A stretch of 64,000 bases of DNA from Escherichia coli (GTDB taxonomy: Bacteria > Pseudomonadota > Gammaproteobacteria > Enterobacterales > Enterobacteriaceae). Every line of letters begins with the position of its first letter. The first letter of the stretch is position 1. The stretch is from the NCBI RefSeq assembly GCF_045037415.1, contig NZ_CP173438.1; one strand, given 5' to 3'. Of the stretch, positions 21,001-24,000 are shown one piece after another. Position numbers: made by a program.

Positions 21001-24000
21001 CTTAATAACACTTTGGTTGCTCATATTAGTCACGACATCATCAAAGATTACCTCCGGTTTCTGAATAAAGATCTCTCGCAAATACCAGTATGGCAACGTA
21101 GCGCTACGCCCATCCTCACCCTTCCATGCCTGACGCCAGACGTCTTTCGCGTTGCCGCGCAACATAGCATGATGCCCGCTGAAACTGAGTCAGAAAAGGA
21201 ACGAACACGTGCATTATTATTCACTGTGCTATCCCGTTTTCTCGACAGTAAAAAATTCCTTTCACTAATGATGTATATGTTACGTAATTGTGTAAGTGAC
21301 AGCGTTTATCAAATTATTGAAAGCGATATCCACAAAGACTGGAATCTTAGTATGGTAGCCAGTTGTTTATGTCTTAGCCCAAGTCTGTTAAAGAAAAAGC
21401 TGAAAAGCGAAAACACCAGTTATAGCCAAATAATCACCACCTGCCGCATGCGCTATGCCGTAAATGAATTAATGATGGACGGTAAAAATATCTCTCAGGT
21501 ATCACAGTCCTGCGGCTACAACAGTACGTCGTACTTTATTTCTGTCTTTAAAGACTTCTACGGTATGACGCCTCTGCATTATGTTAGTCAGCACAGAGAA
21601 CGCACTGTCGCCTGATTTTTAACCTTAACGAAGAGCTATATTAATAACGGCATCAGCGATAACCCGGTCGATAATAATTCAACTATCGAATGCAGGCGTA
21701 TGATATGACGTAATTTATTGTCACGAAGCTCGCCTTCGCAGGAGTTTAATTATGTCTTCGGATGCTGATGCTCACAAAGTGGGCTTAATCCCCGTCACCC
21801 TGATGGTGTCGGGGAATATTATGGGGTCAGGTGTTTTTCTGTTACCTGCAAACCTGGCCTCCACTGGCGGGATTGCCATTTATGGATGGTTGGTGACGAT
21901 TATCGGTGCGCTGGGGCTCTCGATGGTATACGCCAAAATGTCGTTCCTCGACCCAAGTCCTGGTGGTTCTTACGCTTACGCCCGCCGCTGCTTTGGGCCG
22001 TTTCTCGGTTATCAAACCAACGTCCTCTACTGGCTGGCCTGCTGGATCGGCAATATCGCCATGGTGGTCATTGGCGTAGGATATTTAAGTTACTTCTTCC
22101 CGATTCTGAAAGATCCATTGGTATTAACCATCACCTGCGTCGTGGTGCTGTGGATCTTCGTCCTGCTGAACATTGTCGGTCCGAAAATGATCACCCGCGT
22201 ACAGGCCGTTGCTACCGTGCTGGCGCTGATCCCCATCGTCGGGATTGCCGTATTTGGCTGGTTCTGGTTCCGTGGTGAAACCTATATGGCGGCATGGAAC
22301 GTCAGCGGCCTAGGCACCTTCGGTGCGATTCAAAGTACCCTTAACGTTACGCTGTGGTCGTTCATCGGTGTGGAAAGTGCCTCCGTTGCCGCAGGTGTGG
22401 TGAAAAACCCGAAACGCAACGTCCCTATCGCCACCATTGGCGGGGTATTGATTGCTGCCGTTTGCTATGTACTTTCTACCACCGCGATTATGGGGATGAT
22501 CCCTAATGCCGCACTGCGCGTTTCTGCTTCGCCATTCGGTGATGCCGCACGGATGGCGTTGGGTGACACCGCCGGGGCCATTGTTTCCTTCTGCGCAGCT
22601 GCGGGTTGCTTAGGTTCACTGGGCGGCTGGACGTTGCTGGCAGGTCAAACGGCGAAAGCCGCTGCCGATGACGGACTGTTCCCACCGATTTTTGCCCGTG
22701 TAAATAAAGCGGGCACGCCAGTGGCGGGGCTGATTATCGTCGGTATTTTGATGACCATCTTCCAGCTCAGTAGCATTTCGCCAAACGCGACCAAAGAATT
22801 CGGTCTGGTTTCTTCCGTGTCGGTCATCTTTACACTGGTGCCATATCTTTACACCTGTGCGGCGTTACTGCTGCTCGGCCACGGTCACTTTGGTAAAGCG
22901 CGCCCGGCATACCTGGCAGTTACTACCATTGCCTTCCTCTACTGCATCTGGGCCGTAGTAGGGTCCGGCGCGAAAGAGGTTATGTGGTCATTTGTCACTC
23001 TGATGGTAATCACCGCCATGTATGCGCTGAATTACAACCGGCTGCATAAAAACCCGTATCCCTTAGATGCACCAATAAGCAAAGATTAATTCCCCTTAAT
23101 CCAGCAAACATAAAAGCCAACCTTAAGAACTTAAGGTTGGCTTAATTTTGCTTTGCGAGCATATGCGCACTTTGTTCGATGGAAACACCGTGATGTTGAA
23201 GCGCCTACTAAAAAGACCCTCTTTGAATTTATTCTCCTGGTTATTACTTGCTACTTTTTATATCTCAGTCTGCCTGAATATCGCCTTTTTTAAACAGGTG
23301 CTACAGGTGTTACCGCTGGATTCACTGCATAACGTGCTGGTTTTCTTGTCGATGCCGGTCGTCGCATTCAGCGTGATTAATATTGTCCTGACACTAGGCT
23401 CTTTCTTATGGCTTAATCGTCCACTCGCCTGCCTGTTTATTCTGGTCGGTGCGGCTGCGCAATATTTCATCATGACCTATGGCATCGTCATCGACCGTTC
23501 AATGATCACCAATATCATTGATACTACGCCGGCGGAAAGTTATGCCCTGATGACGCCACGAATGTTATTAACGCTGGGGTTAAGTGGCGTATTAGCCGCG
23601 ATTATTGCCTGCTGGATCAAAATCAAACCCACCACCTCACGCCTGCGCAGCGTTCTTTTCCGCGGGGCCAACATCCTGATTTCTGTACTGCTGATTCTGC
23701 TGGTTGCCGCACTGTTCTACAAAGACTATGCCTCGCTGTTTCGCAACAACAAAGAACTGGTGAAATCCTTAAGCCCGTCCAACAGCATTGTTGCTAGCTG
23801 GTCGTGGTACTCTCACCAGCGGTCAGCCAACCTGCCACTGATACGCATTGGTGAAGATGCTCACCGCAACCCATTAATGCAAAATGGGAAACGTAAAAAC
23901 CTGACCATTTTGATCGTCGGAGAAACGTCGCGCGCAGAGAATTTCTCGCTGAATGGTTATCCACGCGAAACCAATCCTCGTCTGGCAAAAGATAACGTGG

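Follow-up and report, generated by a model that had tools for sequence, protein, structure and literature searches.

A probable adiC terminator hairpin and a predicted PmrA/BasR box of the eptA-basRS promoter in the adiC-eptA gap of Escherichia coli

How can the 103-bp gap between adiC and eptA (23090-23192) hold both the end of one transcript and the activator site from which the next would be started? The question is raised by a stretch of Escherichia coli DNA of 64,000 nucleotides (NCBI RefSeq assembly GCF_045037415.1, contig NZ_CP173438.1), referred to here at its full length as the window, in which adiC, the gene of the arginine:agmatine antiporter, is followed on the plus strand by eptA, basR and basS (pmrB). 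An initial annotation, made from the sequence alone, had described a PmrA direct repeat in this gap as the 3' arm of a 14-bp palindrome. It had proposed that the same DNA serves as the adiC terminator and as the eptA-basRS activator site, that the palindrome creates a second, inverted copy of the box, and that read-through could couple acid-resistance transcription to lipid A modification. The analysis reported here points to two ordinary elements, a PmrA-dependent eptA-basRS promoter and the intrinsic terminator of adiC, which probably share DNA in the gap.

Results

Palindrome, RNA structure and predicted promoter

An inverted-repeat search of the window returned a perfect inverted repeat that begins 25 nt past the adiC stop codon, with two 14-nt arms, 100% complementary and separated by 2 nt, at 23114-23127 (AAGCCAACCTTAAG) and 23130-23143 (CTTAAGGTTGGCTT). 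The 3' arm coincides with the first 14 nt of the PmrA/BasR box, and the palindrome described in the initial annotation was thereby confirmed. No other perfect inverted repeat in the window is as long, and only one other repeat with arms of at least 11 nt and a loop of at most 8 nt was found there; by our own arithmetic, about 0.003 such repeats would be expected by chance in 64 kb. The elements of the gap that carry the argument are as follows.

23114-23127, plus strand: 5' arm of the hairpin, AAGCCAACCTTAAG; its outer part (23114-23122) is lineage-specific and its inner hexamer (23122-23127) resembles a PmrA half-site
23130-23146, plus strand: PmrA/BasR box, CTTAAGGTTGGCTTAAT (CTTAAG-GTTGG-CTTAAT), with half-sites at 23130-23135 and 23141-23146, assigned from the exact consensus and conservation
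23144-23154, plus strand: U-rich terminator tail, AAUUUUGCUUU, assigned from a terminator scan and from Term-seq ends at 23142-23150
23157-23162, plus strand: predicted eptA-basRS -10 hexamer GAGCAT (pattern nAnnAT), 10 nt past the box, with A51, A54 and T55 invariant in alignment A2 (described below)

Folding of the RNA, one of the checks proposed with the initial annotation, gave a stable structure. The segment 23085-23165 reached -23.2 kcal/mol, compared with -10.7 ± 2.4 kcal/mol for shuffled sequences (z = -5.2), and none of 200 shuffles folded as well. As RNA, the hairpin stem has 13 bp, of which 5 are G-C pairs, and a free energy of -17.8 kcal/mol. A simple terminator scan found 23114-23143 with the tail UUAAUUUUGCUUU to be terminator-like on both strands. 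An Rfam covariance-model search of 23090-23192 produced no match at E ≤ 1.

The box matches YTTAAK-N5-YTTAAK exactly. Two such matches are present in the window against 0.17 expected, the other being the pmrR promoter box on the minus strand (26712-26728). Verified PmrA boxes combine CTTAAG with xTTAAT, 5 bp apart, and overlap or replace the -35 element at the pbgP, ugd and pmrCAB promoters (PMC3973317, PMC10570014), and a cross-species PmrA motif was built in part from an instance upstream of yjdB, that is, pmrC/eptA (PMC1525208). Transcription of Salmonella pmrC is PmrA-dependent and induced by mild acid (PMC1804205), and in E. coli eptA is among the BasR targets listed in the literature. 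A consensus promoter scan of 22900-23400 found no sigma-70 promoter with a -35 element, which fits the expectation for an activator-dependent promoter. The spacing from box through 10 nt to a -10 hexamer recurs at pmrR (CATACT) and at arnB of K-12 (TAAAAT). The eptA transcription start is predicted to lie near 23169 (about 23167-23171), which would put the box at roughly -40 to -24. Given an exact consensus at the expected promoter position, and its conservation, the reading of the direct repeat as the eptA-basRS box stands. From these features and the published work on Salmonella and Klebsiella, we infer that PmrA binds at 23130-23146 in E. coli as well.

Mapped 3' end of the adiC transcript

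The adiC-eptA gap is base-for-base identical to that of K-12 MG1655, and experimental data from K-12 are therefore directly applicable to it. RNA 3' ends were taken from the TRS re-analysis of the E. coli Term-seq data of Dar and Sorek (Supplementary Data 2 of PMC10687069), in which reads are placed on NC_000913.3, and were converted to window positions by subtracting the K-12 coordinate from 4358783. The adiC row was assigned to the sheet headed "E. coli - Dar and Sorek" by its position between that header and the next sheet header. The adiC 3' terminus is listed there on the minus strand at 4335633-4335641, with 4335633 dominant, in the class "Primary" and with a signal of 1 and an adjusted p of 0 in three replicates (PMC10687069). 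In the window, these ends correspond to 23142-23150, with 23150 dominant. Read on the K-12 sequence, the dominant end is the G after AAUUUU, 7 nt beyond the last pair of the stem, and it falls within the eptA promoter's spacer, some 7 nt short of the predicted -10 hexamer. As a control, the 3' end that this table gives for adiA (4338106) is found just past a GC hairpin (GCGCGGCCCCACCCCGCGC) followed by U8. Neither Adams 2021 nor SMRT-Cappable-seq lists adiC or eptA in its supplement.

The position of the Term-seq end, 7 nt past the stem, shows that the hairpin marks a real end of the adiC transcript, which supports the initial placing of a terminator at the palindrome.

Conservation within E. 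coli and across lineages

For comparison, 60 eptA loci from reference genomes were brought into an ungapped alignment anchored on the box; alignment A2 comprises the 52 Enterobacteriaceae sequences among them (47 distinct). Invariant in A2 are the TTAA of both half-sites, GTT in the spacer, CTTAA in half-site 2, and the A, A and T of the nAnnAT hexamer at fixed spacing. Similar boxes are present in Pantoea and Tatumella. Together with the Term-seq end, this invariance of the box and the -10 hexamer supports the proposal that one piece of DNA acts as terminator arm and as activator site.

Within E. coli, 4808 of 5411 genomes are 100% identical to the window over the 61 nt (23105-23165) that take in the hairpin, box and -10 hexamer, and the two single-mismatch genomes examined carry a C-to-G change at 23109, outside both hairpin and box. 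The full hairpin is also retained in five other Escherichia lineages. A stretch of 35-42 nt separates the end of adiC from the box in Escherichia and the C. amalonaticus group, with no alternative structure between them, and the box hairpin at such loci has between -17.4 and -18.2 kcal/mol, save for one locus at -11.2 kcal/mol. A GC-rich hairpin resembling a repetitive extragenic palindromic (REP) element (-15 to -32 kcal/mol) lies between adiC and the box in Salmonella and in most of the C. freundii complex; the box hairpin there has between 0 and -17 kcal/mol, being essentially absent in Salmonella. The energies of the two hairpins are anticorrelated (Spearman rho = -0.80, n = 27 loci, uncorrected for phylogeny), but these 27 loci represent a handful of independent lineages and the anticorrelation is accordingly treated as suggestive. 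Loci L009, L017, L023 and L025 carry C-to-T changes in the 5' arm that create G-U pairs, which preserve pairing only in the plus-strand RNA. The long palindrome and the overlap are a lineage-specific packing, not a conserved regulatory device.

REP-like hairpins after adiC (e.g. GGCCGGATAGCGCAGGTTATCCGGTC and GCCCGATGACATAAGCGCATCGGGC) were seen in Salmonella (L007, L008) and in Citrobacter (L010, L012-L015, L017, L018, L020, L023, L052-L054 and L056), and loci with this insertion often show a degraded box hairpin.

A third TTAA and the inverted copy of the box

Two further features overlap the 5' arm of the hairpin.

23111-23127, minus strand: degenerate mirror of the box, CTTAAGGTTGGCTTTTA, with three mismatches; not a functional-looking box
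23123-23126 (hexamer 23122-23127), strand not assigned: third TTAA core, the invariant columns T16, T17, A18 and A19 of A2 (the hexamer being columns 15-20)

The palindrome covers 14 of the 17 box positions and ends within the second half-site. Read on the minus strand (23127-23111), the mirror is CTTAAG-GTTGG-CTTTTA, the TTAA core of its second half-site having been lost. The second, inverted box of the initial annotation therefore holds in part: half-site 1 and the spacer are mirrored, but the second half is CTTTTA and no -10-like hexamer follows at 10 nt. The inverted copy was also considered as a divergent promoter and rejected, given this second half and a hexamer 10 nt beyond it (ATTAAG) that lacks the A2 and T6 of a -10 element.

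The third TTAA lies 8 bp upstream of half-site 1 (start to start) and is invariant in all 52 Enterobacteriaceae eptA promoters, whichever gene is upstream. It is kept even next to an unrelated, co-directional upstream gene whose product is not AdiC, as in Klebsiella, Kluyvera and Raoultella. The surrounding hexamer (23122-23127) fits YTTAAK in 44 of the 52 sequences on the minus strand, compared with 19 on the plus strand; genuine half-sites vary alike at their end positions (CTTAAA, ATTAAG), so this preference for the minus strand is not decisive. The pmrR and arnB promoters are without an upstream TTAA, which makes the element specific to the eptA promoter, and no description of it at the eptA promoter was found in the searchable literature. 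A third half-site-like hexamer (xTTAAx) could give the autoregulated eptA-basRS promoter a second mode of binding for PmrA or a partner, and with the extended hairpin of E. coli, adiC termination and PmrA occupancy would then interfere with each other through roadblock or occlusion; we regard this as distinctly unlikely. The invariant third TTAA is the sole item here that may be informative on PmrA promoter architecture.

In four Kluyvera loci (L032, L036, L051 and L058), the upstream co-directional open reading frame (ORF), with the C-terminal motif GPGSFYTSLLPILL, runs into the box and has its TAA stop codon inside half-site 1.

Gene order and variation around the gap

The genes on either side of the gap were placed from the ORF list and from an identical E. 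coli record as annotated in RefSeq.

21752-23089, plus strand: adiC coding sequence (arginine:agmatine antiporter)
23193-24836, plus strand: eptA
24833-25501, plus strand: basR
25502-26602, plus strand: basS/pmrB

The order on the plus strand is adiA, adiY, adiC, eptA, basR and basS/pmrB, with pmrR and proP on the opposite strand; the eptA-basR-basS operon, downstream of the predicted promoter, spans 23193-26602. Several complete genomes are 100% identical to a 1001-bp query taken around the site. Among the more than 5400 matches to the adiC-eptA junction, 3 are on plasmids and not on chromosomes.

The promoter and hairpin region is identical to K-12 and the flanking genes are about 97-100% identical to it, unlike the first ~800 bp of eptA (23201-24000), which are only 79-90% identical to K-12 (L062). 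Over 22700-23700, 4415 of 5412 E. coli genomes are 90-95% identical to the window. Comparison of these sequences suggests two divergent alleles of the eptA 5' part, whose recombination boundary would be the start codon. E. coli strain 1506, a human isolate (L065, NZ_CP059288.1), carries an IS1 element immediately past AATTTTGC, at the equivalent of window position ~23151/23152. The insertion splits the PmrA box and terminator tail from the eptA -10 element, that is, the box from the core promoter.

On the minus strand, the pmrR box (CTTAAGGTTCACTTAAT, 26712-26728) sits 10 nt upstream of the CATACT -10 hexamer, ahead of pmrR. The sole Rfam match in 21500-27500 was STnc630, over pmrR (182 bits), which spans the whole pmrR region (26571-26736, minus strand). 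This model starts upstream of the pmrR box and so includes promoter DNA.

Discussion

The preferred reading of the gap builds on sequence features, their conservation and the RNA 3' end observed in K-12. Phosphorylated PmrA would bind CTTAAG-N5-CTTAAT at 23130-23146, where the box would stand in for a -35 element, and would recruit RNA polymerase to the weak -10 hexamer GAGCAT, with transcription of eptA-basRS starting near 23169. In the adiC RNA, the box would pair with the upstream segment 23114-23127 to form the 13-bp stem, followed by the U-rich tail, and the transcript would end at 23150. The box would be the ancient and constrained part, to which the 5' arm in Escherichia and some Citrobacter would have evolved, or been kept, complementary; the box would thereby double as half of the sole terminator hairpin after adiC. 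Both components are of known kinds, and each was already on record for this very sequence, as the Term-seq 3' end of adiC and, for the eptA (pmrC) promoter, the PmrA/BasR box; their overlap is real and neat.

Several observations weigh against this reading. The stem is rich in AT pairs, the U tract is broken (UUAAUUUUG), and a d'Aubenton-Carafa-type score computed here was negative (-9.5). With a positive scan but a negative score, the terminator call is ambiguous from sequence alone; the negative score is overruled by the mapped adiC 3' end. That end may itself reflect 3'-to-5' trimming to a stable hairpin after termination downstream, and the assignment of the PmrA site in E. coli derives from consensus and conservation. 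Covariation across the 52 species is weak, the score lying above all shuffles but coming from only two pairs, and no more than about half of the distinct sequences form the outer three pairs (columns 7-9). At L022, L027 and Tatumella L046, which lack adiC as a neighbour, long palindromes with apparently compensatory arms were likewise seen; termination of adiC is thus not the only force that maintains them. The L027 record, titled Chryseobacterium sp. 18061, is plainly enterobacterial (EptA 71% identical, upstream gene as in Klebsiella) and was probably contaminated or mislabelled.

If the 3' end at 23150 were a processing or protection end, the adiC transcript would terminate further downstream, in a Rho-dependent manner or otherwise, and be trimmed back by exonuclease, with the hairpin serving as an mRNA stabiliser. 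Rho-dependent transcripts are commonly trimmed back to stable stem-loops, which is said to be the theme of Dar and Sorek (2018), and the poor score of the hairpin as a canonical terminator is in keeping with it. An end 7 nt past the stem in a U-rich run is, however, the classic geometry of intrinsic termination, and the translated eptA ORF begins 43 nt downstream, leaving little untranslated RNA for Rho loading. We consider a processing end very unlikely and infer that the end arises by intrinsic termination, for which the 7-nt geometry in the U run argues. A leaky terminator would have a different consequence, in that induction of adiC under acid and anaerobic conditions could drive eptA-basRS by read-through, or box-bound PmrA could modulate termination. 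The AT-rich stem, interrupted U tract and negative classical score would be compatible with leakage, PmrB/PmrA also respond to mild acid, and, as read from the sequence, polymerase arriving from adiC must traverse the entire box before the hairpin can form. The TRS statistic nears 0 at full read-through (PMC10687069), but at the adiC end it is 1.0, its maximum, with an adjusted p of 0 in three replicates; no read-through was detectable in that Term-seq experiment, in which nothing indicates induction of the adi genes. The hairpin has moreover gone in Salmonella and much of Citrobacter despite the kept adiC-eptA synteny, and no transcriptional link between adiC and eptA was found in the searchable literature. 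The signal of 1.0 and the loss of the hairpin under kept synteny leave a read-through link between acid resistance and lipid A modification unsupported, and we give it scarcely any probability.

The palindrome could instead be mainly a binding element at the level of DNA, with 23122-23127 as a third, possibly inverted, PmrA half-site or as the site of another dimeric regulator, tuning the autoregulated eptA-basRS promoter, and with termination incidental. The third TTAA, invariant in the 52 promoters even where the upstream gene is unrelated or its ORF enters the box, absent from the PmrA-dependent pmrR and arnB promoters and better fitted to YTTAAK when read on the minus strand (44 of 52, compared with 19 on the plus strand), would suit such a role. 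The conserved part is, however, only the inner 4-6 bp of the palindrome, its outer 9 bp varying by lineage; the offset is 8 bp, whereas OmpR/PhoB-family dimers have an 11-bp tandem register; the argument from orientation is weak, true half-sites also showing CTTAAA and ATTAAG; and the mapped RNA 3' end shows the hairpin acting in RNA. A primarily DNA-level role is therefore judged unlikely. The palindrome might also be a neutral by-product, TTAA-N4-TTAA having seeded quasi-palindrome correction by template switching during replication, with the arms extended in the absence of selection. Apparently compensatory arm variants in unrelated contexts (GACAACC/GGTTGTC in L027, AAAACCTTA/TAAGGTTTT in Tatumella L046, and ACATTAAG/CTTAATGT in L010, L012 and L053) and long arms without adiC (L022) would be expected from such a process, but it would not account for a hairpin strength that is inverse to the presence of another hairpin after adiC, for arms that hardly vary among more than 5400 E. 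coli genomes and five Escherichia species, or for the demonstrated RNA 3' end, and we hold it to be highly improbable.

The practical consequences of two elements sharing this DNA are modest. Mutations or insertions in the box that are aimed at eptA or at colistin-related expression will also alter adiC transcript ends, and vice versa, and both the terminator and the regulon annotation of the locus should carry the two roles. There is also a small evolutionary point, in that a constrained transcription factor site can be recruited as a terminator arm and released upon insertion of a REP-like hairpin.

The closest known system is the PmrA box of the Salmonella enterica pmrCAB promoter, reportedly described by Wosten and Groisman in 1999. 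The two promoters are orthologous, and in Salmonella (L007, L008) CTTAAG-N5-CTTAAT likewise lies 63 nt before the start codon, with a T-rich spacer, an nAnnAT -10 hexamer and adiC upstream. They differ in that the Salmonella 5' arm is degraded, the box hairpin there having about 0 kcal/mol, and in that a separate REP-like GC hairpin (about -20 kcal/mol) stands between adiC and the box; in Salmonella the box is therefore not a terminator arm. The E. coli pmrR and K-12 arnB promoters share the consensus box, the 10-nt spacing and the -10 hexamer, but have neither the upstream TTAA nor a palindrome, and their boxes are not terminator arms. Like the canonical intrinsic terminator of adiA, the adiC hairpin is a stem-loop after the stop codon with a U run and a Term-seq end just downstream; it differs in being AT-rich, in a U tract broken by AA and in a 3' arm that is a predicted activator site. 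Terminator-promoter junctions and bidirectional terminators are reportedly covered by Ju et al. (2019) using SEnd-seq. As in short-gap junctions of this kind, the adiC terminator ends inside the next promoter, and as in bidirectional terminators its hairpin is symmetric, has an A tract on one side and a U tract on the other, and is terminator-like on both strands. Unlike bidirectional terminators, the adiC-eptA gap has no convergent gene that uses the minus-strand side, and unlike other terminator-promoter junctions, the overlap takes in the predicted activator site and not only the core promoter.

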